Assembly (NCBI RefSeq): GCF_000981785.2
Contig: NZ_CP011304.1
Coordinates: 3,690,001-3,722,000, forward strand
DNA length: 32,000 nucleotides
Direction of reading: 5' to 3'
From: Microcystis aeruginosa NIES-2549
Lineage (GTDB): Bacteria > Cyanobacteriota > Cyanobacteriia > Cyanobacteriales > Microcystaceae
Both the position numbers and the translations under genes were made by a program. Shown here piece after piece: positions 6,695 through 29,977 of this stretch (within the stretch, counting starts at the first letter, position 1; each line of letters starts with the position of its first letter). A model generated the notes under the pieces. The model was given only the letters and a program-made list of their open reading frames with translations. It ran no database searches and was not told the DNA's origin.

Positions 6695-6697
6695 GAA

Positions 6698-6739
6698 CAG
6701 TTACCAGTTACCAGTTACCAGTGATCGGTTATCAGTGTC
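6698..6739. repeat. heptamer tandem repeat (STRR-like)
   Basis: Six consecutive 7-nt units follow the ppk stop: CAGTTAC x3, then CAGTGAT, CGGTTAT, CAGTGTC. Confidence 0.85.
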
Positions 6740-6791
6740 TGTGAGTTTTATTGCTATTCACTGTTTACTGATCACTGGAAAAAGCTGACTA

Positions 6792-6860
6792 ACTGGTTGA
6801 GAGGTTAAACCATCTCAAAAGCTGAGAGCAAGCATCTTGATCTGTATTTTCTCAACCAGT
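6792..6860. terminator. long inverted repeat between convergent ppk and flavodiiron genes (possible bidirectional terminator)
   Basis: ACTGGTTGAGA (6792-6802) is the exact reverse complement of TCTCAACCAGT (6850-6860). The loop is 47 nt and contains a smaller TCTCA/TGAGA hairpin. There is no clean U tract, so terminator function is uncertain. Confidence 0.3.
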
Positions 6861-6877
6861 CAAATCAAGCAAGAATC

Positions 6878-8602
6878 CTAATAATAATTACCGACTTTGC
6901 GATGGTGAACAGCCGTTAAACTATCAGGTTTAGAAACGCGACCATCGGTGACTTTATTGTAAACAATCCAGTGGTCAGCACATTCCATGCGACTAACTAC
7001 CTCACATTCTAAATAAGCGAGGGCATCGGCTAAAATCGGCGAACCATTATTAGCGGTGCGAGTATTGACTCCTGCAAAACGATCTTCCCCGGGTCCGAAA
7101 CGTTTTAAAAAGTGTTTCATCAGGGTTTGATAATTGCCTTCTTCCAGAATATTTAAAATGAATTGATCCCCCACTTGCATTAAAGACTCGATCGCCCGAT
7201 CTTTGGCCACAGCAACGGTAAAACCGGGAGGATCAAAACTTGCTTGAGTCACCCAAGAAGCGACCATTGCCCCGCTTCTGTCTCCTTTCTTGGTGGTAAT
7301 AATATATAGACCACCGCTAATCCGTCCGATGGCTTTATCGAGGTCAGTATCGAGGGATTTTCTTTGTTTAACTTTTACCTCTTGGGTTAATAGTTGTCCC
7401 ATATCTGTTCCCGCTTCTTCACAGCGTTGATAGAGACTCTCGTTAGGAGTTTCTGTGCTACGAATTGGTTCAAAAGCTTTGGTTAAGCCAACTTCACGAA
7501 ACTTATTAAATAGAGGTAAAATCGGTTCATCATCACCCCCTTGACATTCAAACATTCCGAGGTATTGTTTGGGGTTAACCGAGGCGAGAATTGTGCCTAG
7601 ATTACCCGTAATTTCTTGGGCATGAATACCAGAAACGGGGGGAGTCCCGATGACGATTCCCACCGCAGAAGAAGCTAATTCTTTTACCTCTTGGGGATCG
7701 GCAGATTTCAGATCTAAAGTTTCTACAGCCAAACCAGTTTTAGTAATACCTTTGGCAATAGATTGACAGAGGCGATCACTATAACCATAGTCGGAAATAT
7801 AGAAAACAGCGACGGTTTTTTCTGCCTTAGTTTGTGCCTGACTCCAATCACGATAATGGTTCAATAATTCGCTAATATTATGTTTTAATACCGGTCCATG
7901 ACCATTAGCCACGAAATTAATATTACCCAGGGGTTCCATCCGTTTCATCGCCGCTAGTACGGAACGAGCATTAGGAGCCATTAAACACTCATAATAGAAA
8001 CGATAATCCGGTTCAATAGCACTTAATTGCTCATCGTAAAGATCATCGGAACAGTAGTGCATTCCGAAGGCATCACAGGTAAATAAAATTCCCGAACCGT
8101 GATCGTAGGTAAAAATAGTATCGGGCCAGTGTAAATTAGGAGCGTTAACAAATTCGAGAATATGACCGTTGCCTAGGTCTAACTGATCGCCATTTTTGAC
8201 CAGTTGACGTTGAAAGGGATGATGAACTAAATTCTCTAAAAACTGAATTGCCACTTTCGCCCCAACGACGGTAATATTGGGAGCGAGTTGCAATATATCT
8301 CTGACCAATCCACTGTGATCGGGTTCGGTATGACTGATAATTAAATAATCGATTTCTTGGGGGTTAATTAATCCGTTGAGGCTATCAAAATATAGTTGAC
8401 GGAATTTTTCGTGAGAGGTATCCACAAGGGCGATTTTTTCCCCACGAATCAGATAGGAGTTATAAGTCGTACCGTTTTGTAATCCGAATTCAATATCGAA
8501 GCGATCGCGATCCCAATCGAGGGAACGAATAGCGGTGGTGTCTGCGGTGAGATCGGCCACCTGCATGGTGAGACGTTTTGTTTTGACTGGTGTAGCAACC
8601 AT
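6878..8602 (-). CDS. flavodiiron protein (A-type flavoprotein with C-terminal flavin-reductase domain), Flv3/Flv4-like
   Basis: 574 aa. It has a metallo-beta-lactamase-like domain with the canonical diiron ligand motif HTEPDH (IISHTEPDHSG), a flavodoxin-like middle domain and a C-terminal flavin reductase-like domain (GGLYIITT...MVASWVTQASFDPP). SD AAGGAGAG lies upstream. Which Flv paralogue it is cannot be settled by eye. Confidence 0.92.
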   Translation of the reverse strand: MVATPVKTKRLTMQVADLTADTTAIRSLDWDRDRFDIEFGLQNGTTYNSYLIRGEKIALVDTSHEKFRQLYFDSLNGLINPQEIDYLIISHTEPDHSGLVRDILQLAPNITVVGAKVAIQFLENLVHHPFQRQLVKNGDQLDLGNGHILEFVNAPNLHWPDTIFTYDHGSGILFTCDAFGMHYCSDDLYDEQLSAIEPDYRFYYECLMAPNARSVLAAMKRMEPLGNINFVANGHGPVLKHNISELLNHYRDWSQAQTKAEKTVAVFYISDYGYSDRLCQSIAKGITKTGLAVETLDLKSADPQEVKELASSAVGIVIGTPPVSGIHAQEITGNLGTILASVNPKQYLGMFECQGGDDEPILPLFNKFREVGLTKAFEPIRSTETPNESLYQRCEEAGTDMGQLLTQEVKVKQRKSLDTDLDKAIGRISGGLYIITTKKGDRSGAMVASWVTQASFDPPGFTVAVAKDRAIESLMQVGDQFILNILEEGNYQTLMKHFLKRFGPGEDRFAGVNTRTANNGSPILADALAYLECEVVSRMECADHWIVYNKVTDGRVSKPDSLTAVHHRKVGNYY

Positions 8603-8986
8603 CGAACCTCTCCTTATTGTTAAGTTTTTTATACTTTGTCTCTATTGTGCCACGAGGAAATAAGGTATGGGGATTTATTTTCCCATAATTACTGATAACA
8701 GTTATCTTAATGGTCAGGCTGCATCTCACATTTGCAGGAATACCGACAATCAGCAATTATCAGTGACTCTTAGATGATGACAAATGTATCAGCAGCAGCC
8801 TGTGAGCATCCCACCGAAAAGCTAATGCGCTCTAGGGTTTCGGGGGTTCTACCCCCAAAGGCTGGGATTGAGTGATAGAATCGGAAGTAATGCCAGATTT
8901 TAGCCGAGAGTTTCCCCGTAAAAATCCCAACTTGGTAGATTTACAAAAATGAGATGCACCCTGGACATTGCCCACCGTACTACTAT

Positions 8987-9694
8987 TTATTGAATTTTAA
9001 CATTTAATTTATAGGTGGCATTGCCGCGAGTTCCGCCTACAATTATTTCATAATTTCCAGTAGCAGGTAATTTTAAACTAGATTGGGTAGCTTCTGTTTT
9101 CAATATTTCCCCATTCGGTGCAATCACATCAAATACGGCATTATTTTCTAACGATGTAATTTTCACATCCATTCTCTGTCCTTGATTCGCTCTTAATAAA
9201 TAAATATCTCTACTCCCTCGCACAACCGATTGATTAACAGTGGCACTATTAGTTCCTGGTGCAAACCGGATTTGAGACAATAAACAAGGTTCTTTTTGAT
9301 AAACCACTCGTCCCGTATTCAAAGAATCTGCGGTTAACGTCCATATTTCTTGAGTTTTTTGGTTGTCTAACTCAATTTTTGTCCTGATATTTAAGTTTAA
9401 CTGATTCCCTTTTTTTGTTCCTTGTAAGGTTTGAGTATAGGAAGTATAATAGGATTCTTGTTCATTATGAATCGTAGCTTCTACCCGACCCGTGACTTGA
9501 TTTCCCTGAATATAAATCCTTGCCGTAGAATCCAGATTATCATTCGCGACTGAAAAACAATAACCCTGAATCGAAGAGGCACTGGGAGCTTGAGCAACTT
9601 GTAGGGGGAAATGATTTGCCATCCCTGGTGTAACATTCAGTAAACTGGCAAAAACGACTACACATCCTAATAATTTCATCATAATCATGACCAT
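8987..9694 (-). CDS. secreted hypothetical protein (signal peptide; beta-rich C-terminal domain)
   Basis: 235 aa. The N-terminus MVMIMMKLLGCVVVFASLLNVTPGMA looks like a Sec signal peptide. The remainder is a beta-strand-like alternating pattern ending ...ATGNYEIIVGGTRGNATYKLNVKIQ. The start could be any of the clustered Met codons. No family recognised. Confidence 0.6.
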   Translation of the reverse strand: MVMIMMKLLGCVVVFASLLNVTPGMANHFPLQVAQAPSASSIQGYCFSVANDNLDSTARIYIQGNQVTGRVEATIHNEQESYYTSYTQTLQGTKKGNQLNLNIRTKIELDNQKTQEIWTLTADSLNTGRVVYQKEPCLLSQIRFAPGTNSATVNQSVVRGSRDIYLLRANQGQRMDVKITSLENNAVFDVIAPNGEILKTEATQSSLKLPATGNYEIIVGGTRGNATYKLNVKIQ

Positions 9695-10019
9695 TCAAAA
9701 TTTTCACTAATGCTAAACTAATTATCGCCCCAACCGCCATAGCTGCAATTCCCCATTGACAAAAAGCCATAACCTCTAATGAAACCGAGCAAAAACAGTT
9801 TCTGGGACAATATGTGCATTCCCCCCGACGAGAATTGCCCTTGTCACCCATCGGCAGGGATGGATATTTCGCCATCAAAATTTCCCCACTCACCCTTGCT
9901 GAATTTGGGTATGTTAAAGAATAGGACAAAATTAACTTCTTGGTTAGAATAGGCAGTCATGCAAGAGACTTCGGCCGTGAGACGGCGGGCTATGGCTACA
10001 GAAGGGAGACGAATCAGCT

Positions 10020-13000
10020 ATGGTAAAACTAGAGGAACTTACTCGTGGCTCTATTGTTAACGGAATATTACCGAACCAAGCTGTCACCGTCATCGAGGCC
10101 AAGTGGCATGGCAGCGACACGGTAGAACTGACCTACAAAGATACCAACGGACAACCCTACACAGAACTGCTCTTTCGATACCGAGAGCCAACCCTAGAGA
10201 TTCTCACCGAAGGAAGACCGTGGGGTTTCGATGGCGATGGAGCTTTGCTGCGCCTAGTTTCCGAAGCCCACCGCATCCGGTTGGCCTACCTGTTTGACCC
10301 GCTTCTAGCCGTCCATACCTCTCTGGTGGAACCACTCCCTCATCAAATCACTGCTGTTTACGGTGAGATGCTCGATCGCCAACCTCTGCGCTTTTTGTTG
10401 GCCGATGACCCCGGGGCCGGGAAAACCATCATGGCGGGATTGTTAATTCGAGAACTCCTGATTCGAGGTGACTTAGCGCGCTGCCTGATCGTTTGTCCAG
10501 GCAGCCTCGCAGTGCAATGGCAAGACGAACTACATAACAAATTTCACCTTCCCTTCGATATCCTCACCAACGACCGCCTCGAAACGGCCCGCACCGGCAA
10601 CGCCTTCGCCGAAATGGGTCTGGTCATTGCTAGGCTTGATAAACTCAGCCGTAATCAAGACCTCCAGAAGAAACTCCAGCAGACTGATTGGGATCTGATT
10701 ATCTGCGACGAGGCCCACAAGATGTCCGCTTCGTTTTTCGGTGGGGATATTAAGGAAACAAAGCGTTACAAATTGGGCAAACTCCTCTCTAGCATTACCC
10801 GCCACTTCCTGCTGATGACGGCGACTCCCCACAACGGCAAAGAAGAAGACTTTCAGTTATTCTTAGCCCTACTTGATGGCGACCGCTTTGAGGGACGATT
10901 CCGCGACGGAGTTCCTGTTTCAGATACTTCCGACCTGATGCGCCGCATGGTCAAAGAAGAACTGCTCAAGTTTGACGGCAAGCCACTTTTCCCCGAAAGA
11001 ATCGCTCACACGGTCACTTACCCCCTCTCCGACCAAGAAGCGATCCTCTACAGTCGAGTCACCGAGTATGTGCGCGAAGAATTTAACCGAGCCGAAGCCC
11101 TGGCCAATAACGGGCGCAAGGGGACAGTCGGCTTTGCCCTCACCATTTTGCAACGCCGCCTCGCCTCCTCTCCGGAAGCCATCTATCAATCCTTGAAACG
11201 GCGACGAGAGCGGCTAGAAAAGCGACTCCGAGAAGAAGAATTGCTCAAGCGAGGCCAGTCGCTGGAGATGGAATTTGCCACCGTCCTTGACCAAGACGAC
11301 ATCGATGACGACTTTGAGGATACCGATAGCAGCGAGCGGGAGGCCACGGTCGAGGAGGTGGTCGATCAGGCTACAGCAGCCCGTACCATTGCCGAACTAC
11401 AGCTTGAAATCGCCCTGCTCAAAGAGCTTGAAGACTTAGCCAATACCGTCCGACGGAGCGGAAAAGACCGTAAGTGGGAAGAGTTTTCCCATCTTTTTCA
11501 GGATCAGGCGGAGATGTTCGATGCGGGAGGATACCGCCGCAAAATTGTCGTCTTCACCGAACATAGAGACACCCTCAACTACCTGAAAGAGCGGATCGGC
11601 ACACTCCTTGGCAACCCAGAAACTGTTGTCACCATTCACGGTGGCATGGGTCGGGAAGACCGCAAAAAAGCCGAAGAAGGCTTCAAGCAAGACGTAGGAG
11701 TACAGGTACTTCTGGCCACCGATGCCGCCGGAGAGGGGATCAACCTGCAACGAGCGCATCTCATGGTCAATTATGACCTACCCTGGAACCCAAACCGCCT
11801 AGAACAGCGATTCGGTCGCATTCACCGGATTGGACAGACCGAGGTTTGTCATCTCTGGAATTTGGTGGCCCACGAAACCCGCGAGGGAGATGTCTATCGG
11901 ACACTCCTCGAAAAACTCGAAGCCGAACAAAAAGCTTTAGGCGGACGGGTCTTTGATGTATTAGGTAAAGCCATTGCGGGAAAAGAATTGCGCGAACTTC
12001 TCATCAAAGCCATCCGCTACGGCGATCGCCCAGATATAAAAGCACGCTTAAACCAGGTCATCTCTGAAAAGCTCGATCAAGAGAGACTAAGGGAATTGCT
12101 GCAAGAACGCGCCCTAGCACGCGATTCGATGGATGCTTCCAAAGTTCAGAAAATTCGAGAAGATATGGAGCGAGCCGAAGCCAGAAGGTTACAGCCGCAC
12201 TTCATCGCCGCATTTTTCCTCGAAGCCTTCCAACGCTTAGGCGGCACCCTACGCCAGCGAGAGCCAAAGCGATACGAGATCACCAACGTCCCCGCCGTTA
12301 TCCGTAACAGAGACCGCTTTTTCGGGATAGGAGAGCCAATTCTCAAACGCTATGAGCGCATCTGTTTTGATAAAGAACTGATTAGTATTCCGGGGAAACC
12401 CGTTGCTACCTTTGTCTGTCCCGGCCATCCCCTGTTAGATGCCACTATCGATCTTGTCTTGGAACGGCATCGGGAATTACTCAGACGGGGAGCTATCCTA
12501 GTTGATGACAGTGATCCGAGCGAGGAAATTCGGGCGCTGGTGTACTTAGAACACGCCATTCAAGATGCTCGGCTAAATCCCGATGGTAGGAGGCGGGTGG
12601 TGTCGCGGCGGATGCAGTATGTGGAACTATTTGAACCACAGAGACACAGAGGACACGGAGAGAGGGATGCTGGGTATGCCCCTTATCTGGATTATCGTCC
12701 TTTGGCGGAGGAGGAGCGGGTGCTGGTGGAGCCTATCATTGATTCTCTGGATATTGGTAATGAGATTGAGAAGAAGGCTACCAGTTATGCGATCGCCAAC
12801 CTTGTCTCTTCCCATCTTCGGGAGGTACGGCAGCGCAAGGAAGAGCTAATTGAAAAGACCATTGCGGCAGTTAAAGACCGCCTGACCAAGGAGATCAACC
12901 ACTGGGACCATCGGGCGAACCAGTTGCGCCTACAGGAAGAAGCGGGAAAGACCAATGCCCGGATAAATTCCAACAAAGCCCGAGCCAGAGCCGATGAACT

Positions 13001-13544
13001 ACAAACGCGGTTGCAAAAGCGCTTGTCTGAATTGGAGCAGGAGCGCCAGCTTTCCCCTTTGCCGCCGGTGGTGGTGGGGGCAGCCCTCGTCGTACCGGGC
13101 GGACTGTTAGGAAGACTTTTAGGCAAGCCAATGTTTGCCAGAGACACTAAGCGCATCGAGCAGCTGGCGATGGCGGCAGTCATGGCGACCGAAAAAGCAT
13201 TAGGCTACGAGCCGCGGGATGTGAGCGCCGAGAAGTGCGGCTATGACATCGAATCGCGCAGGACCGGAACAGGCCGCTTACGGTTTATCGAAGTCAAGGG
13301 TAGAGTAGAAGGAGCCGATACGGTGACGGTGACTAAAAACGAGATTTGCCTAGCGTTGAACAAGTCCGAGAGTTTCTTACTTGCTTTAGTTTCCGTTTCT
13401 CCGTCAGAGGAAGTGCGGGTGAGATATGTGCGCCAGCCATTCCAGAGGGAACCGGATTTTGGGGTGTGTAGTGTTAATTATAATTGGAGAGAGTTATGGG
13501 ACAGGGGGGATATGATTGAACCACAAAGGCACAAAGGACACTAA
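10020..13544 (+). CDS. SNF2/DEAH-family helicase with C-terminal PD-(D/E)XK-like (DUF3883-type) domain; helicase component of an Hma-type defence locus
   Basis: 1174 aa. Helicase motifs: motif I GAGKT (10413-10427), motif II DEAH (10707-10718), motif III LMTATPHNG, motif VI QRFGRIHRIGQ. A coiled-coil region follows. The C-terminal module carries GYDIES...RFIEVKG (D at 13245-13247, EVK at 13290-13298). The last 8 codons and the stop (EPQRHKGH*) come from the first unit of the downstream repeat array. Confidence 0.93.
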   Translation: MVKLEELTRGSIVNGILPNQAVTVIEAKWHGSDTVELTYKDTNGQPYTELLFRYREPTLEILTEGRPWGFDGDGALLRLVSEAHRIRLAYLFDPLLAVHTSLVEPLPHQITAVYGEMLDRQPLRFLLADDPGAGKTIMAGLLIRELLIRGDLARCLIVCPGSLAVQWQDELHNKFHLPFDILTNDRLETARTGNAFAEMGLVIARLDKLSRNQDLQKKLQQTDWDLIICDEAHKMSASFFGGDIKETKRYKLGKLLSSITRHFLLMTATPHNGKEEDFQLFLALLDGDRFEGRFRDGVPVSDTSDLMRRMVKEELLKFDGKPLFPERIAHTVTYPLSDQEAILYSRVTEYVREEFNRAEALANNGRKGTVGFALTILQRRLASSPEAIYQSLKRRRERLEKRLREEELLKRGQSLEMEFATVLDQDDIDDDFEDTDSSEREATVEEVVDQATAARTIAELQLEIALLKELEDLANTVRRSGKDRKWEEFSHLFQDQAEMFDAGGYRRKIVVFTEHRDTLNYLKERIGTLLGNPETVVTIHGGMGREDRKKAEEGFKQDVGVQVLLATDAAGEGINLQRAHLMVNYDLPWNPNRLEQRFGRIHRIGQTEVCHLWNLVAHETREGDVYRTLLEKLEAEQKALGGRVFDVLGKAIAGKELRELLIKAIRYGDRPDIKARLNQVISEKLDQERLRELLQERALARDSMDASKVQKIREDMERAEARRLQPHFIAAFFLEAFQRLGGTLRQREPKRYEITNVPAVIRNRDRFFGIGEPILKRYERICFDKELISIPGKPVATFVCPGHPLLDATIDLVLERHRELLRRGAILVDDSDPSEEIRALVYLEHAIQDARLNPDGRRRVVSRRMQYVELFEPQRHRGHGERDAGYAPYLDYRPLAEEERVLVEPIIDSLDIGNEIEKKATSYAIANLVSSHLREVRQRKEELIEKTIAAVKDRLTKEINHWDHRANQLRLQEEAGKTNARINSNKARARADELQTRLQKRLSELEQERQLSPLPPVVVGAALVVPGGLLGRLLGKPMFARDTKRIEQLAMAAVMATEKALGYEPRDVSAEKCGYDIESRRTGTGRLRFIEVKGRVEGADTVTVTKNEICLALNKSESFLLALVSVSPSEEVRVRYVRQPFQREPDFGVCSVNYNWRELWDRGDMIEPQRHKGH
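12633..12656 (+). repeat. degenerate copy of the AACCACAAAGGCACAAAGGACAC repeat inside the helicase CDS, in frame
   Basis: GAACCACAGAGACACAGAGGACAC compared with the array unit GAACCACAAAGGCACAAAGGACAC (13518-13541). It is translated EPQRHRGH, close to the EPQRHKGH that ends the same protein. Confidence 0.7.
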
Positions 13545-13749
13545 GGGGATTAACCACAAAGGCACGAAGGACACTAAGGGGATTAACCACAAAGGCACAA
13601 AGGACACTAAGGGGATTAACCACAAAGGCACGAAGGACACGAAGATAGAAGAACCACAAAGGCACAAAGGACACGAAGATAGAAGAACCACAAAGGCACG
13701 AAGGACACGAAGATAGAAGAACCACAAAGGCACGAAGGACACTAAGGTT
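13518..13749 (+). repeat. tandem array, 7 units of 30-34 bp, forward orientation (core AACCACAAAGGCAC(A/G)AAGGACAC)
   Basis: Units start at 13518, 13552, 13585, 13618, 13652, 13686 and 13720. There are two linker types: TAAGGGGATT in units 1-3 and GAAGATAGAAG in units 4-6. The array begins inside the helicase 3' end and stops exactly at the ATG of the GxxExxY gene (13750). Confidence 0.95.
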
Positions 13750-14130
13750 ATGGATGAGAGGGCTAATGATTTATCTAAGGAGATTATTGGGGCGGCGATC
13801 GCTGTTCATCGGGAGTTGGGGCCAGGACTATTGGAGTCGGCCTATGAGGCCTGTTTAGAGTACGAGTTATTGGATAGGGGGATAGCGGTGGAGCGTCAAG
13901 TTCCTCAATCAGTGATTTATCGCGGTGTTAAACTTGATTGTGGTTATCGTCTCGATCTATTGGTGGAAAATCTGGTTATTGTCGAACTGAAAACTGTTGA
14001 ACAACTTACCCCCATTCACGAGGCCCAGTTGTTAACCTATCTCAAATTACGCCGGCTTTGGCTAGGATTACTGATTAATTTTAACGTTCCCGTTCTCAAA
14101 CAAGGCATCAAACGCCTTGTCAACAATTAA
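13750..14130 (+). CDS. GxxExxY-family protein (PD-(D/E)XK nuclease-fold, PDDEXK_3-like)
   Basis: 126 aa. It has the eponymous motif GPGLLESAY (G-x-x-E-x-x-Y) and a D...ExK-like core ([16 protein letters not shown]). The C-terminus (LLINFN) is typical of this family as I recall it. Confidence 0.85.
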
Positions 14131-14135
14131 TCTTT

Positions 14136-14192
14136 GTGTCCTTTGTGCCTTTGTGGTTCCTCAATCTTCGTGTCCTTTGTGCCTTTGTGGTT
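14136..14192 (-). repeat. two units of the same repeat in reverse orientation
   Basis: GTGTCCTTTGTGCCTTTGTGGTT occurs at 14136-14158 and 14170-14192. It is the reverse complement of the core in the 13518-13749 array. The repeat starts 5 nt after the GxxExxY stop and ends 12 nt before the methylase ATG. Confidence 0.95.
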
Positions 14193-14204
14193 CTTTTATC
14201 TCCC

Positions 14205-17198
14205 ATGACCTACCGTAAAAAACTCATTGAAGTGGCCCTACCCCTAGAAGCCATTAACGTCGAATCGGCATACGAAAAGAAACCAGGTATTGGTTCCCAT
14301 CCTAGAGGAGTTCATCTCTGGTGGGCGCGGCGACCTTTAGCAACTTGTCGCGCCGTTCTGTGGGCTTCATTAGTGGATGACCCGTCGAGTTGGCCAGATA
14401 AATTTCCCACCGAGGAGGAGCAGAATCGGGAACGACAGAGATTGTTCGATATATTAGGAAGAATTCATATTGAAACAGATAAGAAGGGAAACACGAAGCA
14501 GGTCGTAAAGGGACTGGTATCGTGGAAGGAAATCAATAAACCCACTTCCAACGTATTAGACGCGGCACAGCGAGAAATTGCGCGCTGTTTAGCTTGGGAA
14601 CGTGGGGAAGAACCCCCCACTAAACCGGATGCTATACGCGACTATATCGCTAAATATGCCCCCTCCGCCTATGACCCGTTTTGTGGTGGTGGTTCCATTC
14701 CTTTGGAGGCCCAGCGCTTGGGTTTGCAGGCCCACGGTAGTGACCTCAATCCGGTGGCGGTGTTGATTACTAAGGCTTTGATCGAGATTCCGCCCAAGTT
14801 TAAGGATAAACCGCCGGTTAATCCCGATTCTCGCCAAAAACAAAAGATTTCTTCCTGGGAAGGGGCCCAGGGATTGGCCGCAGATGTGCGCTATTACGGT
14901 CAGTGGATGCGGGATGAGGCTTTTAAAAGGATTGGCTATCTTTATCCGATGGTGGAAACCAACCACAAAGGCACAAAGGACACTAAGGTGATTGCTTGGC
15001 TTTGGGCCAGGACGGTGAAGTGTCCTAATCCGGCCTGTGGCTGTCAGATGCCTCTGGTCCGCAGTTTTCAGCTTTCGACGAAGAAGGGTAAGGAGGCTTG
15101 GGTTGAGCCTTTTGTGGGAGATGTTAACACTGAGGGGGATTTTAACCACAAAGGCACTGAGGACACAAAGGGGGATGATTTTGGTGTCTCTGGGGTGCCA
15201 CCCAAAATCCGCTTTGAGGTGAAGACGGGTAAGGGTACGGCCCCGGAATCTCCCAAGACTGGTCGAGGAGCTACGTTTCGGTGTTTAGCCTGTGGTCAGC
15301 CAGTTAACGATAAGCATATTAAGGCAGAAGGAATGGCGGGACGGATGGATGCTCAACTCATGGCAATTGTTGCTGAGGGGAAAGGTGGACGGATTTATCT
15401 TTCTCCTAACTCTGAACATGAAGCAATCGCTAAGAGTGCAAAACCAACATGGTATCCAGATGCTCAAATAAGCGATGATAGGCGGTCAATGTTCACACCG
15501 CTTTATGGACTGACGCATTTTCATCATCTTTTTACTCCCCGTCAACTCGTCGCCCTCACTACTTTTAGCGATTTAGTAAGTGAAGCCAGAGAAAAAATTA
15601 AAGCTGATGCAGTAGCCGCAGGAATCCCTGATGATGATTTACCTCTTAATGATGGGGGAATAGGCGCGACGGCTTATGCGGATGCAGTGGCGACTTATTT
15701 GGCATTTGTGATTGATCGATGCGCTGACTTTAACTGTTCTGTAACGAGGTGGGCATCTAGTAATGAAAAAATAATGAATTTATTTGCCCGCCAAGCAATC
15801 CCTATGGTTTGGGATTATTCAGAAGCTAATATTCTAGAGAAGGTGGTTGGAGGATTTGAGACGTGCAATGAATATGTTAGTGACTGTATCGCAATATTGC
15901 CGACAACAATCACATCTAAGGGAGAAGTGAATCAAAAAGATGCTTCCCAAAACAACTGTGATTTGTCGCTATGTCCCGTAATATCAACCGATCCACCATA
16001 TTATGACAATATAAGCTATGCAGATCTTTCAGACTTTTTTTACGTCTGGTTGCGCCGTTCTTTAAATTCAATCTATCCCAATCTTTTCAGCACTTTACTC
16101 GTTCCCAAAGCACCCGAATTAGTCGCTACTCCCTATCGTTTTGGGGGTGATAAGAAAAAAGCTCAATCCTTTTTTGAGGAGGGCTTAGGCAAAGCATTCG
16201 GACGAATGAATGCGATGGCTCACTCAGATTACCCTCTGACGGTTTACTACGCTTTCAAGCAGTCAGAAACCAAAGACAGCGATGATGACGCAGGAAATAC
16301 TTTTGTATCATCCACCGGGTGGGAAACAATGCTCGAAGGTTTGATTAAATCCGATTTTTCGATTGGCGGCACATGGCCAATGAGAAGTGAACAAAATGAA
16401 AGGATGGTAGCAACTGGCACAAATGCCCTCGCCTCATCTATAGTCCTCGTGTGTCGTCCCCGTCCCGCCGACGCGCCCAAAGCCAGCCGCCGGCAATTCC
16501 TCAACGAACTGAAGCGAGACCTTCCCCAAGCCCTAAAACTGCTGCAACAGGGCAATATTGCCCCCGTTGACCTCGCCCAAGCCAGTATTGGGCCCGGGAT
16601 GGCAATCTACTCCAAATACGCCGCTATCCTCGAATCTAACGGCTCCTCCATGGGTGTTCGCACGGCCCTGCAACTGATTAACCAGATTCTCGACGAATTT
16701 CTCACCGAACAAGAAGGAGAATTTGATAGTGATACCCGTTGGGCGCTGACTTGGTTCGAGCAGTACCAATTCAACGAAGGACTATATGGCAATGCAGAAA
16801 CCCTCTCCAAAGCCAAAAACACCAGTATTCAGGGCATGGTTGAAGCTGGCATACTAGAAGCAAAAGCCGGTAAAGTGCGACTACTCAAGCGCGAAGATCT
16901 TAAAACCGATTGGAAGCCAGAAAAAGATGAGCGGACACCCATCTGGGAAATCACCCAACACCTCATCCATACCCTCGATAAAAACGGCGAAACCGGAGCC
17001 GCAGAACTCTTGGCCAAACTAGGAAACAGAGCCGATTTAGCCAAAGAACTCGCCTATAGACTTTATAGCCTCTGTGACAGAAAAGGTTGGACCCAAGAAG
17101 CCATAGCCTACAATAGCCTCGTCACCTCTTGGCCAGAAATCACCCGCCTAGCCAACGAATATAAACCCTCCCCCGAACAACTATCCTTTTCTTTGTGA
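14205..17198 (+). CDS. DUF1156-type DNA methyltransferase (DPPY, N6-adenine/N4-cytosine class) with split Zn ribbon; methylase component of the Hma-type locus
   Basis: The start is moved to ATG 14205 (MTYRKKLIEVALPLEAINVESAYEK is the characteristic DUF1156 N-terminus). The 23 codons upstream in the ORF track are repeat sequence. Motif I DPFCGGGS at 14673-14696. Cys pairs CPNPAC and CLAC form the Zn ribbon. Motif IV DPPY at 15990-16001. The stop TGA (17196-17198) lies in the first unit of the downstream array. Confidence 0.9.
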   Translation: MTYRKKLIEVALPLEAINVESAYEKKPGIGSHPRGVHLWWARRPLATCRAVLWASLVDDPSSWPDKFPTEEEQNRERQRLFDILGRIHIETDKKGNTKQVVKGLVSWKEINKPTSNVLDAAQREIARCLAWERGEEPPTKPDAIRDYIAKYAPSAYDPFCGGGSIPLEAQRLGLQAHGSDLNPVAVLITKALIEIPPKFKDKPPVNPDSRQKQKISSWEGAQGLAADVRYYGQWMRDEAFKRIGYLYPMVETNHKGTKDTKVIAWLWARTVKCPNPACGCQMPLVRSFQLSTKKGKEAWVEPFVGDVNTEGDFNHKGTEDTKGDDFGVSGVPPKIRFEVKTGKGTAPESPKTGRGATFRCLACGQPVNDKHIKAEGMAGRMDAQLMAIVAEGKGGRIYLSPNSEHEAIAKSAKPTWYPDAQISDDRRSMFTPLYGLTHFHHLFTPRQLVALTTFSDLVSEAREKIKADAVAAGIPDDDLPLNDGGIGATAYADAVATYLAFVIDRCADFNCSVTRWASSNEKIMNLFARQAIPMVWDYSEANILEKVVGGFETCNEYVSDCIAILPTTITSKGEVNQKDASQNNCDLSLCPVISTDPPYYDNISYADLSDFFYVWLRRSLNSIYPNLFSTLLVPKAPELVATPYRFGGDKKKAQSFFEEGLGKAFGRMNAMAHSDYPLTVYYAFKQSETKDSDDDAGNTFVSSTGWETMLEGLIKSDFSIGGTWPMRSEQNERMVATGTNALASSIVLVCRPRPADAPKASRRQFLNELKRDLPQALKLLQQGNIAPVDLAQASIGPGMAIYSKYAAILESNGSSMGVRTALQLINQILDEFLTEQEGEFDSDTRWALTWFEQYQFNEGLYGNAETLSKAKNTSIQGMVEAGILEAKAGKVRLLKREDLKTDWKPEKDERTPIWEITQHLIHTLDKNGETGAAELLAKLGNRADLAKELAYRLYSLCDRKGWTQEAIAYNSLVTSWPEITRLANEYKPSPEQLSFSL
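14961..14988 (+). repeat. perfect repeat unit inside the methylase CDS, in frame
   Basis: AACCACAAAGGCACAAAGGACACTAAGG is 28/28 identical to array unit 13585-13612. It is read as NHKGTKDTK within ...[25 protein letters not shown]..., a different frame from that used at the helicase C-terminus. Confidence 0.9.
15131..15177 (+). repeat. second repeat-derived segment (linker plus unit) inside the methylase CDS, in frame
   Basis: TGAGGGGGATTTTAACCACAAAGGCACTGAGGACACAAAGGGGGAT resembles linker TAAGGGGATT plus the core. It is read as EGDFNHKGTEDTKGD and lies between the two Cys pairs of the Zn ribbon. Confidence 0.8.
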
Positions 17199-17700
17199 CC
17201 TTTGTGCCTTTGTGGTTAATCCCCCTTCGTGTTCTTTGTGCCTTTGTGGTAAATCCCCCTTCGTGACCTTCGTGCCTTTGTGGTAAATCCCCCTTCGTGA
17301 CCTTTGTGCCTTTGTGGTAAATCCCCCTTCGTGTTCTTTGTGCCTTTGTGGTTCCCCAAACTTTGTGACCTTTGTGCCTTTGTGGTTCAAAATCCCCCTT
17401 CGTGTTCTTTGTGGTTCAAAATCCCCCTTTGTGCCTTTGTGGTTCAAAATCCCCCTTCGTGACCTTTGTGCCTTTGTGGTTCAAAATCCCCCTTCGTGAC
17501 CTTTGTGCCTTTGTGGTAAATCCCCCTTCGTGACCTTTGTGCCTTTGTGGTAAATCCCCCTTCGTGTTCTTTGTGCCTTTGTGGTTCCCCAAACTTTGTG
17601 ACCTTTGTGCCTTTGTGGTTCAAAATCCCCCTTCGTGTTCTTTGTGGTTCAAAATCCCCCTTCGTGTTCTTTGTGGTTCAAAATCCCCCTTCGTGTGGTT
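17191..17700 (-). repeat. tandem array of about 15-16 units (28-37 bp), reverse orientation, with a 233-bp higher-order duplication
   Basis: Units have the form TTCGTG(AC/TT)CTTTGTGCCTTTGTGGT plus linker AAATCCCCC, TCAAAATCCCCC or TCCCCAAAC. Some units are shortened (TTCGTGTTCTTTGTGGTTCAAAATCCCCC). Segment 17260-17427 recurs at 17493-17660 with a single mismatch. Confidence 0.95.
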
Positions 17701-17748: not shown

Positions 17749-20700
17749 ATGGCAATCAGCAATCGTGAACGAGTCGGACGCGCCCTAGATTTCCTCAGAG
17801 AGGGACTATACCCCTTCATTGAACGAGAAATGAAAGCAAGCTACGGCCAGAAGTGGCTCGCCGTGGCCTTAAGTTGCCTCCCTGAGAGCTATACGATCCG
17901 CAGGACAGGTGATGCCGTCCTCAAGGAAGACGTTTCGGCCCTGCTAATTGTCCTCTGGGAGCAGTGGAATGAAGTTTTTAAGAAAACCCTAGGCAGAAGC
18001 GATCGCTCTCTGGCCAGTGAACTAAGAGATGTCCGCAACGCCTGGGCCCATAACGATGCTTTCAGCCTCGACGATGCTTACCGGGCTTTTGATAGCATCT
18101 CTCGCCTACTGAGTTCGGTTTCCGCCGACACCCAAGAGGTGGAGAAGCAGAAGCAAGAAATCCTCAGACTTCGCTTTGAAGAACAGGCCCGGCGAGAGAC
18201 AAGGCGCCAAGCGATCGCACCGACGGAGGGACAACCGATGTCGGGATTGAAACCCTGGCGGGAAATCGCCACCCCCCACCCCGATGTGGCTTCCGGACGC
18301 TTCCAACAGGCCGAATTTGCCGCCGACCTCTGGCAAGTCTATCTCGATGAAGGCTCTGACGAATACCGCGACCCGACGGAATTTTTCCGCCGCACCTACC
18401 TCACCGAAGGACTCAAGCAACTTCTGACCAATGCCCTGCTGCGTCTGAGTGGTAATGGCGGAGAGCCGGTGATTGAACTGCAAACTAACTTCGGTGGCGG
18501 AAAAACCCACGCCATGCTGGCCCTCTACCATCTGTGCAATGCTTTGGCGATCGAAGATCTTCCCGGTATGGAGTCGATATTCCAAGCTCTGAACATTAAA
18601 AAACCCCCCGAAAATGTCAACATTGCTGTTCTGGTCGGCACTAAAGTCCAGCCTAGTGGCATCCCCCCCTACAAACCGGAACACAACAAGCAAAATCGCC
18701 CAGAAATCAAGACCCTGTGGGGAGAAATAGCTTGGCAACTCGGCGGCGCTGAGGGCTACGCTCTGGTTCGCAACGCCGATGAAACTTCCACTAATCCGGG
18801 AGACGCACTCAAAATATTGTTTAATCGTTTTTCACCCTGTTTGATCTTGATCGACGAATGGGTTGCCTATGCCAGGCAATTGCACGACAAGAACGATATT
18901 GCCGGCGGTAGTTTTGACACCCAGTTTACTTTTGCCCAAACCCTGAGCGAGTCGGCGAAAAATGCCCAGCAGACGCTTTTGGCTGTGAGTATCCCCGCTT
19001 CGGAAACCGTTGACGAAAAAACCGGAGAAGTACGGACTACAGATGTTGAAACCGGAGGAGAACGGGGTACAGAGGCCCTAGACCGCCTTAAAAATGCGAT
19101 CGGGCGCATCCAATCCCCTTGGCGACCCGCTAGTGCCGAGGAGAGTTTCGAGATCGTCCGCCGCCGTCTCTTTCAAACCACTACTGACCCGCAACTATTT
19201 GTCGCACGGGATGCGGTTATTAAAGCCTTCTCCGAGATGTATCGCACCCAGGCCCAGGAATTTCCTAGCGAATGCCTGGAGGCTGACTACAGACGCCGCC
19301 TGCGGGAAGCCTATCCCATTCACCCAGAATTTTTCGATCGCCTCTACTCCGACTGGTCAACCCTCGATAAATTCCAGCGCACCAGGGGTGTTTTGCGACT
19401 CATGGCCAAGGTCATCCATTCCCTTTGGGAGCGAGAGGACAAGAGCTTGTTGATCATGCCGTCCCACGTCCCGATGGATGATGCTCAGGTTCAGTCGGAG
19501 TTAACCCGCTACTTAGATGATAATTGGGTTCCGATCATCGAAAAGGATGTGGATGGCCCCAATTCTCTGCCCCTCGACATCGATCGCCAAAATTCCAACC
19601 TGGGACGCTATTCTGCTTGCCGTCGGGTTACGCGCACTATTTACCTTGGCTCGGCCCCCACGATTCGGGCTGCTAACCGAGGACTAGAAGATAAGAGGAT
19701 AAAACTCGGTTGCGTGCAGCCGGGGGAGACTGTAGCCACTTTTGGTGATGCCCTACGGCGGCTAACAGATCGGGCCACCTACCTCTACATCGATGGCAAC
19801 CGCTACTGGATTTCCAATCAGCCGAACGTCACCCGCACAGCCCAAGATCGGGCAAACCTGCTCTTTGAGGAGCGGTATAAAGTGACAGAAGAAATCGTCC
19901 GGCGCTTGAAGTCCGACCAGCAGCGGGGCGAGTTTGGAGGGATTCATATTGCCCCAGAATCTACTGCCGATATTCCTGATGATCCTAATCTCGGCGTGCG
20001 GCTCGTCGTTCTCGGTCCTGGGCAACCCCACAGCAAATCCGCCGAAGATAGCCCCGCTCGGCGTTTAGTGGCGGAAATTCTCAATCAGAGAGGGGGTAGC
20101 CCCCGCTATTACAAGAATACGCTTGTATTTGTTGCCGCTGACAAATCGAACTTGGAAAACTTAGAGAAGAACGTCGCCGGATATCTTGCCTGGAATTCAA
20201 TTGTGGCGGATCAGGAAACCCTCAATCTCGATGTTTCTCAGAATAAACAGGCGATCACTAAGCGCGATCAAGCCGACAAGGACGTAAGCCTGATCCTCAA
20301 CCAAACCTATAAGTGGCTGCTGGTTCCGGAGCAACCCGACCCCCAGAAAGGCATCCACTGGACTGATACCAACGCTCAGGGGGACGATTCGCCTATCGAT
20401 CGAGCCAGCCGCAAACTGGTTCATGAGGGGCAACTGATTACCCATTACTCTGGTGACAACCTGCGGATGGAGGCCCTCGACAAATACCTGTGGCGTTCAA
20501 CTAACCACATCGATCTGAAACGTCTGTGGGAGTACCTAGCGCAGTATCTTTACTTGCCCCGTCTCAAGAACCCGGATGTTCTGCTTCAGGCTGTGCGGGA
20601 GGGATTGGTCTCAATGCTTGTGCAGGAAAATTTTGCTTATGCAGAGGGCTGGGACGAGGCAAGGCAAAGATATACTGGTCTTGTCATCCTTCGGGATATC

Positions 20701-21141
20701 AACCCGAGTATCAGCAGTCACAGCCTTCTGGTTAAGCCTGATGTAGCTATGGGGCAGCTAGAGGCCGAGAAACCAGCTAACCCCCCGACCACTGCCGAGA
20801 CTGATTCGGTTATCTCCAGTGACCGTGATCGGCCGCCATCTTTACCCTCTGGTGTTGGATTAACTGTGACAGAGACTCCCGGTGATCTGGTTGAGAAAAA
20901 GCTGGTTCTGCGGAGGTTTTACGGCAGTGTTGAGATCGATCCCCTGCGAATTAATCGAGACGCTTCCGCGATCGCTGACGAGGTAATCCAGCATCTCACC
21001 CGACTCAATGGGGCCAGCGTTAAGGTAACACTGGAGATCGAGGCTGATATTCCTGATGGAACACCCGATGATGTGGTGCGGACGGTGACGGAGAATTGTC
21101 GGACACTAAAATTTAATAATCAGTCGTTTGAGCAGGAGTGA
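17749..21141 (+). CDS. DUF499-type P-loop ATPase with N-terminal Swt1-like HEPN domain; ATPase component of the Hma-type locus
   Basis: The start is moved to ATG 17749 (MAISNRERVGRALDFLREGLYPFIEREMK). The 48 codons upstream in the ORF track are repeat-array translation. HEPN Rx4H motif RNAWAH at 18034-18051. Walker A NFGGGKTH (GGGKT at 18493-18507). Walker B CLILIDEW. About 1130 aa, as expected for DUF499 proteins. Confidence 0.88.
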   Translation: MAISNRERVGRALDFLREGLYPFIEREMKASYGQKWLAVALSCLPESYTIRRTGDAVLKEDVSALLIVLWEQWNEVFKKTLGRSDRSLASELRDVRNAWAHNDAFSLDDAYRAFDSISRLLSSVSADTQEVEKQKQEILRLRFEEQARRETRRQAIAPTEGQPMSGLKPWREIATPHPDVASGRFQQAEFAADLWQVYLDEGSDEYRDPTEFFRRTYLTEGLKQLLTNALLRLSGNGGEPVIELQTNFGGGKTHAMLALYHLCNALAIEDLPGMESIFQALNIKKPPENVNIAVLVGTKVQPSGIPPYKPEHNKQNRPEIKTLWGEIAWQLGGAEGYALVRNADETSTNPGDALKILFNRFSPCLILIDEWVAYARQLHDKNDIAGGSFDTQFTFAQTLSESAKNAQQTLLAVSIPASETVDEKTGEVRTTDVETGGERGTEALDRLKNAIGRIQSPWRPASAEESFEIVRRRLFQTTTDPQLFVARDAVIKAFSEMYRTQAQEFPSECLEADYRRRLREAYPIHPEFFDRLYSDWSTLDKFQRTRGVLRLMAKVIHSLWEREDKSLLIMPSHVPMDDAQVQSELTRYLDDNWVPIIEKDVDGPNSLPLDIDRQNSNLGRYSACRRVTRTIYLGSAPTIRAANRGLEDKRIKLGCVQPGETVATFGDALRRLTDRATYLYIDGNRYWISNQPNVTRTAQDRANLLFEERYKVTEEIVRRLKSDQQRGEFGGIHIAPESTADIPDDPNLGVRLVVLGPGQPHSKSAEDSPARRLVAEILNQRGGSPRYYKNTLVFVAADKSNLENLEKNVAGYLAWNSIVADQETLNLDVSQNKQAITKRDQADKDVSLILNQTYKWLLVPEQPDPQKGIHWTDTNAQGDDSPIDRASRKLVHEGQLITHYSGDNLRMEALDKYLWRSTNHIDLKRLWEYLAQYLYLPRLKNPDVLLQAVREGLVSMLVQENFAYAEGWDEARQRYTGLVILRDINPSISSHSLLVKPDVAMGQLEAEKPANPPTTAETDSVISSDRDRPPSLPSGVGLTVTETPGDLVEKKLVLRRFYGSVEIDPLRINRDASAIADEVIQHLTRLNGASVKVTLEIEADIPDGTPDDVVRTVTENCRTLKFNNQSFEQE

Positions 21142-23762: not shown

Positions 23763-23806
23763 AGGAGTCAGGAGTCTCCGAGTCAGGAGTCAGGAGGGGA
23801 AGTCAG
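23763..23806. repeat. heptamer tandem repeat (AGGAGTC type)
   Basis: AGGAGTC at 23763-23769, 23770-23776 and 23785-23791, then AGGAGGG and GAAGTCA, interrupted by TCCGAGTC. Confidence 0.8.
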
Positions 23807-23882
23807 AATAACAGAATGACCTCGCGCACTGGGAAGCGGAACCCTTTGTGTGATAAGTTTAACTTATATAGGATCGATCAAT

Positions 23883-23910
23883 CTTTGTGTCCTTTGTGTC
23901 TTTGTGGTTC
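23883..23910 (-). repeat. solo copy of the island repeat, outside the island
   Basis: CTTTGTGTCCTTTGTGTCTTTGTGGTTC has the same core as 14136-14158 with one substitution. It lies in the mdh / methyltransferase intergenic region. Confidence 0.85.
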
Positions 23911-25141: not shown

Positions 25142-25143
25142 TT

Positions 25144-25178
25144 CAGTTATCAGTTTTCAGGTTTCAGTTATCAGTGAC
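25144..25178. repeat. heptamer tandem repeat (CAGTTAT type)
   Basis: Five units immediately upstream of the methyltransferase ATG: CAGTTAT, CAGTTTT, CAGGTTT, CAGTTAT, CAGTGAC. Confidence 0.85.
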
Positions 25179-27073: not shown

Positions 27074-27143
27074 ATCAGGAGTCAGTCATCAGTGATCGGA
27101 TTTGAGTTTTCAGTTCACTGATTACTGTTTACTGTTCACTGTC
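27074..27143. repeat. heptamer-periodic repeat tract (CAGT/CTGTTTA types)
   Basis: ...CAGGAGTCAGTCATCAGTGATCGG...CAGTTCA CTGATTA CTGTTTA CTGTTCA CTGTCGG. The 7-nt periodicity is clearest over 27111-27145. Confidence 0.7.
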
Positions 27144-28701: not shown

Positions 28702-28956
28702 TAAGTGGCTGAGTGGAATTAAATATAAGATGAACGTAGGTTGGGTTGAAGCATGAAACCCAACGCCAGATTATGTTACGCTACCGCTAACCCATCCTAC
28801 AAATAATTGTGTCTCCCTACTTAGAACCAAAGAGTAAGTGGGTGGGTGGAATTAAATATAAGATGAACGTAAGTTGGGTTGAAGCATGAAACCCAACGGC
28901 CGATTATGTTACGCTACCGCTAACCCATCCTACAAATAATTGTGCCTCCCTACTTA
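28702..28956. repeat. two direct copies of a ~122-bp element (period 133 bp), each with an internal hairpin
   Basis: 28713-28823 and 28846-28956 are 111-bp stretches differing at only a few positions (e.g. GTAGG/GTAAG, GCCAG/GGCCG, GTGTC/GTGCC). The similarity extends about 11 bp further left. Each copy contains GTTGGGTT-N9-AACCCAAC (copy 1: 28740-28764). Confidence 0.9.
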
Positions 28957-29933: not shown

Positions 29934-29949
29934 TCCCAAATCCTCAGAA

Positions 29950-29977
29950 CAGGAGTCAGGAGACAGGAGATAGGAGA
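29950..29977. repeat. heptamer tandem repeat (CAGGAGA type)
   Basis: CAGGAGT, CAGGAGA, CAGGAGA, TAGGAGA, followed by a CCCCACA/CTTCCCA-type run up to the gyrA stop. Confidence 0.8.

Follow-up and report, generated by a model that had tools for sequence, protein, structure and literature searches.

A GxxExxY gene bounded by cognate inverted repeat arms at the hmaA-hmaB junction of Microcystis aeruginosa, a candidate nuclease-bearing mobile unit

Introduction

In RAYT/REPIN systems (REP-associated tyrosine transposases and doublets of repetitive extragenic palindromic (REP) sequences forming hairpins), a small gene lies between inverted short repeats, the repeats also occur as gene-less doublets, each gene lineage has its cognate repeat, and some loci read [doublet]-gene-[doublet]. 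The same traits characterize a 126-aa gene of the GxxExxY family and its relatives, which we analyzed starting from the junction of hmaA and hmaB, two genes of an Hma defence locus, in a 32,000-nt stretch of Microcystis aeruginosa NIES-2549 (contig NZ_CP011304.1, positions 3,690,001 to 3,722,000, hereafter the window, to which all coordinates refer). As with RAYT genes, the Microcystis gene occupies a single locus with vertical-looking inheritance. We estimate at roughly 60% the probability that positions 13518-14196 are a resident copy of a selfish nuclease gene together with its own repeats, comparable to RAYT/REPIN systems or to insertion sequences with miniature inverted-repeat transposable elements (MITEs), and not an Hma effector. 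This reading builds on the observed architecture, cognate specificity, boundaries, arm and protein conservation, genomic contexts and nuclease fold.

The differences from RAYT/REPIN systems are that the GxxExxY protein belongs by fold to the PD-(D/E)XK Cas4/RecB-like nucleases whereas RAYT are HUH Y1 (IS200-like) enzymes, that the GxxExxY arm consists of three direct 8-9-nt subrepeats devoid of self-complementarity whereas REP are self-palindromic, and that many genomes carry several GxxExxY paralogues. With insertion sequences and their MITEs the unit shares terminal inverted repeats (~29 nt), discrete boundaries, occurrence in unrelated contexts and gene-less derivatives with the same ends; it differs in encoding no DDE, HUH, serine or tyrosine recombinase (its sole open reading frame (ORF) is PF13366), in having no target-site duplication and in measuring only about 0.45 kb as a whole. 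Cas4 and RecB provide the best structural matches and the E...D...ExK...QxxxY pattern, yet the GxxExxY protein has about 125 aa, lacks Fe-S cluster cysteines and is not associated with CRISPR, and the template-modelling (TM) score is only about 0.5.

Homing endonucleases are likewise lone small nuclease genes within an insertion and leave no target-site duplication, and a forward-reverse doublet may be the empty site that the gene splits, cleavage of the doublet being hypothetical. The PD-(D/E)XK homing enzyme I-Ssp6803I occurs in cyanobacteria; homing genes normally have no inverted terminal repeats and lie in introns or inteins, or free-standing in phage genomes. Rickettsia palindromic elements are also short units found in-frame within coding genes at tolerated loops, but their sequence and host are unrelated, and we know of no nuclease gene linked to them. 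The reverse unit that follows each cassette in the Microcystis Hma island recalls integron cassettes; single units are not attC-like imperfect palindromes, and no integrase-family domain was found among the 10 window ORFs scanned with Pfam. Finally, insertions have been described in about two thirds of hma operons, in a region termed an insertion hotspot, together with the defence genes inserted there (Liu et al. 2024, PMC11232893), which confirms a statement in a preliminary description of the window, namely that other genes lie embedded in Hma loci. Both junctions, hmaA-hmaB and hmaB-hmaC, are also occupied by variable toxin-antitoxin and ATPase cassettes in the window and in relatives; that report covers inserted defence genes and no repeat-bounded nuclease unit or repeats.

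Results

The unit at the hmaA-hmaB junction

The gene, its arms and the two adjacent genes are arranged as follows:

10020..13544, + strand: hmaA, SNF2 helicase with a NOV_C/DUF3883 nuclease domain (PADLOC HmaA, 1707 bits; Pfam)
13518..13747, + strand: forward 5' array, seven tandem units of 33-34 nt, head-to-tail (repeat scans)
13720..13747, + strand: 5' arm proper, the forward unit nearest the gene, AAC + CACAAAGG + CACGAAGGA + CACTAAGG
13750..14130, + strand: GxxExxY gene, 126 aa, predicted minimal Cas4/RecB/lambda-exonuclease-like PD-(D/E)XK nuclease
14132..14193, - strand: 3' arm made of reverse units 14132-14159 and 14166-14193, which are complementary to the forward ones
14205..17198, + strand: hmaB, DUF1156 methyltransferase-like (PADLOC HmaB, 1210 bits)

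The forward units of the array share the core AACCACAAAGGCACRAAGGACAC. Counting the 20-nt core with at most 3 mismatches gave 24 occurrences in the window against 0.00 expected from 100 shuffles. Around the GxxExxY gene, whose ATG is at 13750 and whose stop codon is at 14128-14130, the inverted arms are 72-74 nt long with 91-93% complementarity. The preliminary description, made from the sequence alone, had recognized the 126-aa GxxExxY ORF in a helicase-methylase junction, with seven forward units reaching its ATG and two reverse units starting 5 nt after its stop. Most of this stands: the array ends at 13747, just before the ATG, and PADLOC identified the neighbors as HmaA and HmaB. The two reverse units are likewise present, but the 5-nt gap is not, since the full unit starts at 14132, 1-2 nt after the stop codon, and the earlier start at 14136 is that of the 20-nt core. 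Nor is the repeat restricted to the flanks of this gene: units also occur in a hmaB-hmaC array, in-frame within hmaA and hmaB, as one solitary copy, and at other Microcystis cassettes.

The stop codon of hmaA (13542-13544) falls within the first forward unit, so that the C-terminal tail of HmaA, EPQRHKGH, is encoded by the repeat. Both this tail and the HmaA length, 1171-1181 aa across strains, depend on which repeat variant is present. At the other end of the array, the final AAGG of the 5' arm lies 4 nt upstream of the GxxExxY ATG and is Shine-Dalgarno-like; the true start of HmaB is the ATG at 14205. A scan of 13300-14400 gave no sigma-70-like promoter, which is weak evidence as cyanobacterial promoters vary. 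Rfam gave no match in the window at the gathering threshold; its matches in 13400-14300 did not exceed chance level.

The GxxExxY protein

The 126-aa protein matched TIGR04256 (GxxExxY) over its full length with 155.8 bits (cut-off 35) and PF13366 (PDDEXK_3) with 149.3 bits (cut-off 22), and its G-x-x-E-x-x-Y motif is G26-L-L-E29-S-A-Y32. The nuclease-fold residues assumed in the preliminary description are in place: E29, D69, E79, K81, Q93 and Y97 are unchanged in an alignment of 51 relatives, and the pattern E...D...ExK...QxxxY is that of RecB-family nucleases. An AlphaFold2 model (predicted local distance difference test 93.5) has the order helix-helix-strand-strand-strand-helix-strand, which is the core of the restriction-endonuclease-like fold, and its top matches among PDB structures were Cas4 SSO0001 and lambda-exonuclease relatives (probability 0.99, TM score about 0.5); a search of the PDB by sequence returned no relative. 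The protein is thus, by its modelled fold, a predicted nuclease.

The family is large, with 23,273 clusters at 50% identity reaching E<=1e-3. In the searchable literature, GxxExxY/PDDEXK_3 has no demonstrated function or biochemical data, the family name and accessions being mentioned in passing only; the arm sequences are not mentioned there either, although a gene-arm association could still be published elsewhere. Some predicted proteins of 270-295 aa (P0361-P0371 and others) hold two GxxExxY domains and are possibly read-through of two adjacent units or genuine tandem fusions. A 203-aa "GxxExxY protein" call (P0001) stands for a cluster of 73 sequences at 90% identity; it is probably an annotation artefact, with the 126-aa protein over-extended upstream through the repeat array.

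Gene and arms across phyla

To collect relatives, we performed a protein-only search with one genome per species (GTDB), yielding 436 relatives, and took the best 80 (58-100% identity) as loci; these came from Cyanobacteria, Chloroflexota, Planctomycetota, Acidobacteriota, Verrucomicrobiota, Proteobacteria, Bacteroidota and other phyla. The same arm design was visible in nearly all printed flanks of the 80 loci: upstream of the gene, (T)T(C/A)ACC leads into three direct subrepeats of 8-9 nt, ~29 nt in total, and downstream stands the reverse complement. Arms were counted by motif scans, using two consecutive CRCNVAG heptamers as the strict window-type motif (the window-type subrepeat being CRCRRAG), since an ungapped inverted-repeat scan under-calls them owing to 1-nt spacing differences. 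Counts were made on the 72 loci with both flanks, with 243 shifted positions within the same loci as controls. The forward motif was found upstream of the gene in 62/72 loci (controls 3/243), the reverse motif downstream in 61/72 (controls 4/243), both in 52/72 (controls 0/243), and at least one in 71/72. The median gap between 5' arm and start codon was 20 nt, and that between gene end and 3' arm was 24 nt.

Flanking genes were co-oriented with the unit on both sides in 42/66 loci. The 111 co-oriented neighbors match 181 Pfam families, most of which are housekeeping, for example NADH dehydrogenase subunits, AAA ATPases, ClpB and chorismate synthase; defence genes are not enriched among them, and DUF1156 occurs in 2/111. 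Between forward and reverse arms, no other cargo recurred in the loci collected; four-helix-bundle "23S IVS" proteins, considered as candidates in this comparison, might still share such arms.

Arm type tracks protein subfamily

Three diverged paralogues on the fetched contigs have arms of the same design, two of them with different subrepeats, CACGGATN and CACGAATN, and paralogues that share one contig each have their own arm type. To quantify this, we took one such paralogue, which shares 36% identity with the window protein, aligned its relatives and retrieved 80 metagenome loci by means of this alignment; 74 of them were scored. The numbers of loci with each motif were:

Diverged subfamily (n=74), CRCGAAW-type motif: forward 65, reverse 63, both 56, either 72
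Diverged subfamily (n=74), window-type motif: forward 0, reverse 0, both 0, either 0
Window subfamily (n=72), window-type motif: forward 62, reverse 61, both 52, either 71
Window subfamily (n=72), CRCGAAW-type motif: forward 1, reverse 0, both 0, either 1

Taken together, an arm motif was present at 143/146 loci (71/72 and 72/74), so the repeat flanks that the preliminary description had proposed to look for at other GxxExxY copies do exist, of a type matched to the protein subfamily. This near-absence of motif crossover indicates that each nuclease lineage travels with its own arms. At variable positions, the two arms of one locus agree at 0.88-0.97 and arms from different loci at 0.39-0.66. 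Viral contigs encoded no relative of the two diverged paralogues. The difference between CAC and CGC arms is not accounted for by locus GC content (p=0.19); the AAAG/AGAG arm difference does track GC (p=0.001).

Unit boundaries and selection

The closest relative outside Microcystis is found in Merismopedia glauca (87% aa identity), in a non-Hma context between PAP_fibrillin and PDDEXK_1 genes, and is flanked there by a single forward and a single reverse arm of the Microcystis type. DNA homology between the two genera spans exactly AAACCACAAAGG to TTTGTGGTTCCTC and the flanks are unrelated; because the homology edges coincide with the arms, gene plus arms form a discrete unit. In the coding sequence, the proportion of synonymous differences (pS) is 0.76 (saturated) and that of non-synonymous differences (pN) 0.09 (pN/pS 0.12), and the non-coding arms are identical at 25/27 and 28/30 positions (~93%). 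Saturated synonymous sites together with low pN and conserved arms point to purifying selection on both the protein and the arms.

Gene-less units and in-frame insertions

Arm pairs enclosing no gene were counted in all four arrangements, forward-reverse (54), reverse-forward (16), forward-forward (11) and reverse-reverse (7). The arms of these doublets are mostly spaced by 11-55 nt or about 90 nt, and one Terriglobia contig (L006) carries a four-copy 140-bp gene-less family with identical ends. Unit density falls with distance from the GxxExxY gene, from 9.2 per kb within 100 nt to 2.1 per kb at 100-300 nt, 0.17-0.24 per kb at 0.3-2 kb and about 0.08 per kb at 2-5 kb. At some loci a doublet stands on each side of the gene. 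The window itself holds the following further units, listed with the remaining hma gene:

12633..12662, + strand: in-frame forward unit in a hmaA loop, GAACCACAGAGACACAGAGGACACGGAGAG, peptide EPQRHRGH
14961..14988, + strand: in-frame forward unit in hmaB loop 1, peptide NHKGTKDTK
15144..15199, + strand: in-frame doublet in hmaB loop 2, forward plus decayed reverse unit, peptide NHKGTEDTKGDDFGVSGV
17191..17696, - strand: reverse-unit array, about 14 units, in the hmaB-hmaC spacer
17749..21141, + strand: hmaC, HEPN_Swt1 + DUF499 ATPase (Pfam, PADLOC), with ATG 17749 as likely start
23882..23910, - strand: solitary reverse unit, intergenic, outside the Hma locus

The in-frame units (two hmaB loops, one hmaA loop) are translated, for example as NHKGTKDTK and EPQRHKGH, and are without counterpart in orthologues. 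By locus, the hmaA loop peptide EPQRHRGH is also present in L095, L096 and L097 and missing from L091-L094, the unit of hmaB loop 1 is missing from the orthologues L092, L093 and L097, and L095 has an intact forward-reverse doublet at the position of hmaB loop 2.

Orthologues that lack in-frame units have short loops at the corresponding points of HmaA and HmaB. In L095-L097, a forward and a reverse unit flank a conserved 25-aa stretch of HmaA. Large low-complexity insertions of the SSLLTP/EERREK type lie in both unit-bearing loops in HmaB of Dactylococcopsis (L094, 12705-16304) and of L091 (11057-14056), and these two HmaB loops seem to tolerate any insertion. The hmaB-hmaC reverse array encloses no gene; the mechanical ORF call for hmaC (17605) begins within it, and ATG 17749 lies downstream of it.

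Hma loci in Microcystis and other cyanobacteria

We read 23 Microcystis contigs; at all 10 Microcystis places shown, and additionally in strain W13-11, an identical GxxExxY protein is encoded directly after hmaA, and the forward array has 4-21 units depending on the strain. Microcystis arrays are local tandem amplifications of single arms. Depending on the strain, the hmaA-hmaB-hmaC junctions also carry VapBC, a PIN pair, TacAT or an AAA_15/DUF3696 pair, and most of these junction cassettes end with a reverse unit. Elsewhere in Microcystis the hmaB-hmaC slot is taken by a pair of the 69-aa + PIN, TacA/acetyltransferase or AAA_15/DUF3696 kind, mostly bounded by units.

GxxExxY is also the first gene after hmaA in five more cyanobacterial lineages (L091, L095, L096, L097, L099), whose HmaA are 73-78% identical and whose GxxExxY proteins show similar divergence (73-78% against 77-81%). 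It is absent from 3/9 cyanobacterial Hma lineages examined, namely Cylindrospermopsis, Chroococcopsis and Dactylococcopsis (HmaA 74-79% identical). The junction of Cylindrospermopsis (L092) is empty, with a divergence too great for a base-precise empty-site comparison, and Chroococcopsis and Dactylococcopsis have other toxin-antitoxin genes there. Hma loci that lack the gene (L092-L094) have zero units, and all Hma loci with the gene have units. In L181 (HmaA 89% identical), the contig ends immediately after hmaA.

These loci bear on both alternatives put forward in the preliminary description, an accessory effector embedded in the defence locus and a selfish repeat-bounded cassette that had landed in the operon. 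The first was not borne out, given that the protein matches none of the PADLOC models (0 families), that the gene is absent from three of the nine lineages, and that its relatives sit in housekeeping operons. The second is supported: the gene does belong to an arm-bounded unit, of a more general kind than was proposed. A recent landing does not fit, however, since all Microcystis genomes read have the gene as a fixed immediate neighbor of hmaA, and five other cyanobacterial lineages have it at the same junction. The envisaged comparison of orthologous Hma loci thus turned up lineages without the gene, none repeat-free where the gene is present, and a gene that is fixed within Microcystis. We read the Microcystis unit as an old, fixed occupant of the hmaA-hmaB insertion hotspot, with a 5' arm amplified to a length-variable array.

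Interpretation

Proposed mechanism and points against it

That the protein binds and cleaves its arms, and how the unit spreads, we infer from cognate pairing, conservation and fold; mechanism is the weakest step of the selfish-unit reading. The nuclease would bind the iterated subrepeats of its cognate arms and would nick or cut at or next to them, upon which arms and gene might multiply by break-induced copying, or by excision and insertion with no staggered cut. The gene may be expressed by read-through from the host operon, with the purine-rich end of the 5' arm as ribosome-binding site, which is a reasonable inference. Gene-less doublets are concentrated near the genes and can lie in-frame in tolerant protein loops. 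We propose more tentatively, at slightly less than even odds, that GxxExxY proteins are the catalytic partners of an unrecognized class of minimal mobile DNA spread across phyla, made of ~0.45-kb units and gene-less doublets, in which a nuclease of ~125 aa recognizes its own 8-9-nt subrepeats and spreads the arms with no target-site duplication.

Several observations weigh against a selfish mobile unit. Movement is not directly evidenced: at the 10 places shown and in W13-11, the Microcystis protein is identical at one conserved position, found at the Hma junction only, and the same element was seen in differing contexts between genera only. The best direct repeat at the unit edges averages 1.44 nt against 1.49 nt in mismatched-flank controls (n=190), i.e. 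there is no target-site duplication, and the signature of classical cut-and-paste transposition is therefore missing. We know of no PD-(D/E)XK protein of such size that serves as a stand-alone transposase. Microcystis units also follow the VapBC, PIN-pair and ATPase cassettes and form same-orientation arrays, for which a simple two-arm element is insufficient. Finally, the GxxExxY divergence in the five further lineages, akin to that of HmaA, fits long vertical residence and gives room for domestication; the long stay at one Hma junction leaves a minority chance that the gene has been domesticated into Hma function.

Alternative explanations

The strongest competing explanation follows from this last point and takes the gene as a domesticated or accessory Hma component, the nuclease working with HmaA, HmaB and HmaC, for instance as an additional effector or as a regulator, while the repeats would be incidental. 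A co-oriented, tightly spaced first gene after hmaA in Microcystis and five further lineages, with intact catalytic residues, purifying selection and a divergence resembling that of HmaA, is what it would lead one to expect. We nevertheless regard it as unlikely: besides the missing PADLOC match and the Hma loci of Cylindrospermopsis, Chroococcopsis and Dactylococcopsis that do without the gene, the closest non-Microcystis relative (87%) lies outside any Hma locus, the arms recur in 143/146 family loci with housekeeping neighbors in the window subfamily, and unrelated insertions occur at these junctions in about two thirds of hma operons (PMC11232893).

The arms could also act at the RNA level, pairing in the polycistronic transcript so that a long stem loops out the ORF, with a role in RNase III-type processing or polarity buffering like that of the ORF-bearing intervening sequences of 23S rRNA. 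A 70-bp stem is indeed predicted around the ORF (-230 kcal/mol, z = -11.3), units are usually co-oriented with the host operon, and the two arms co-vary. We hold this to be improbable. Mismatches between arms are as often G·U-compatible as of the A·C type (51:50 and 49:56 in the two subfamilies), and because there is no G·U excess, it is the DNA sequence of the two arms, and not RNA pairing, that seems to be under selection. Solo units and same-orientation arrays are unable to pair, the in-frame units in coding loops and the doublets on either strand point to a DNA-level entity, and a plain stem would have no evident use for the threefold subrepeat.

A comparably small chance falls to GxxExxY as a passenger, the arms being recognized by an unlinked transposase, recombinase or host factor. 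The existence of gene-less doublets, the Microcystis units that bound other cassettes and the lack of any transposase-like catalytic class in the unit speak for such passive carriage, but arm type switches with protein subfamily with essentially no crossover over 146 loci, even within one contig, no other gene is consistently linked (181 neighbor families), and no alternative cargo recurs between forward and reverse arms. That a generic Microcystis intergenic repeat flanks the gene by coincidence, as units elsewhere in the locus and once outside it might suggest, has a negligible probability in view of the cross-phyla association (0/243 controls), the homology edges exactly at the arms and an arm conservation far exceeding that of synonymous sites.

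Significance

The pairing of subfamily and arm supplies a predicted substrate for biochemistry and makes the function of the family testable. Read as units of gene plus arms, GxxExxY genes wedged between operon genes are accounted for, as are, if the reading is true, the large paralogous sets. If the nuclease drives the spread, it would be a new enzyme class among repeat-propagating systems, a nuclease-based counterpart of RAYT/REPIN. One application could be a compact module that binds or cuts DNA sequence-specifically, its specificity being read from natural protein-arm pairs. For annotation, the units explain repeat-encoded peptide tails, ORF calls over-extended through arrays and contig breaks at such loci; for Hma biology, a test is needed before the embedded GxxExxY gene is counted among the defence components.

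Other features of the window

The genes ahead of hmaA in 10 other Microcystis genomes (L081-L090) are TENA/THI-4, DUF2605, DUF2973 and a hydrolase gene, whereas those of the window encode polyphosphate kinase, a flavodiiron protein and a 235-aa ORF (4526-9929); the Hma island lies in another neighborhood in this strain. The window HmaA lacks ~22 residues at about residues 1085-1100 (13260-13330) that are present in all seven aligned orthologues; the gap falls in the NOV_C nuclease region (...SPSEEVR--VRYVRQ...). Intergenic tandem heptamers occur at 6698-6737, 23763-23796, 25143-25175, 27113-27142 and 29949-29977 (CAGTTAC, AGGAGTC, TCAGTTA, GTTCACT, ACAGGAG) and have no relation to the octamer-based units. 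A further intergenic tandem duplication lies at 28702-28956 (133 nt, 1.9 copies, 95% identical).

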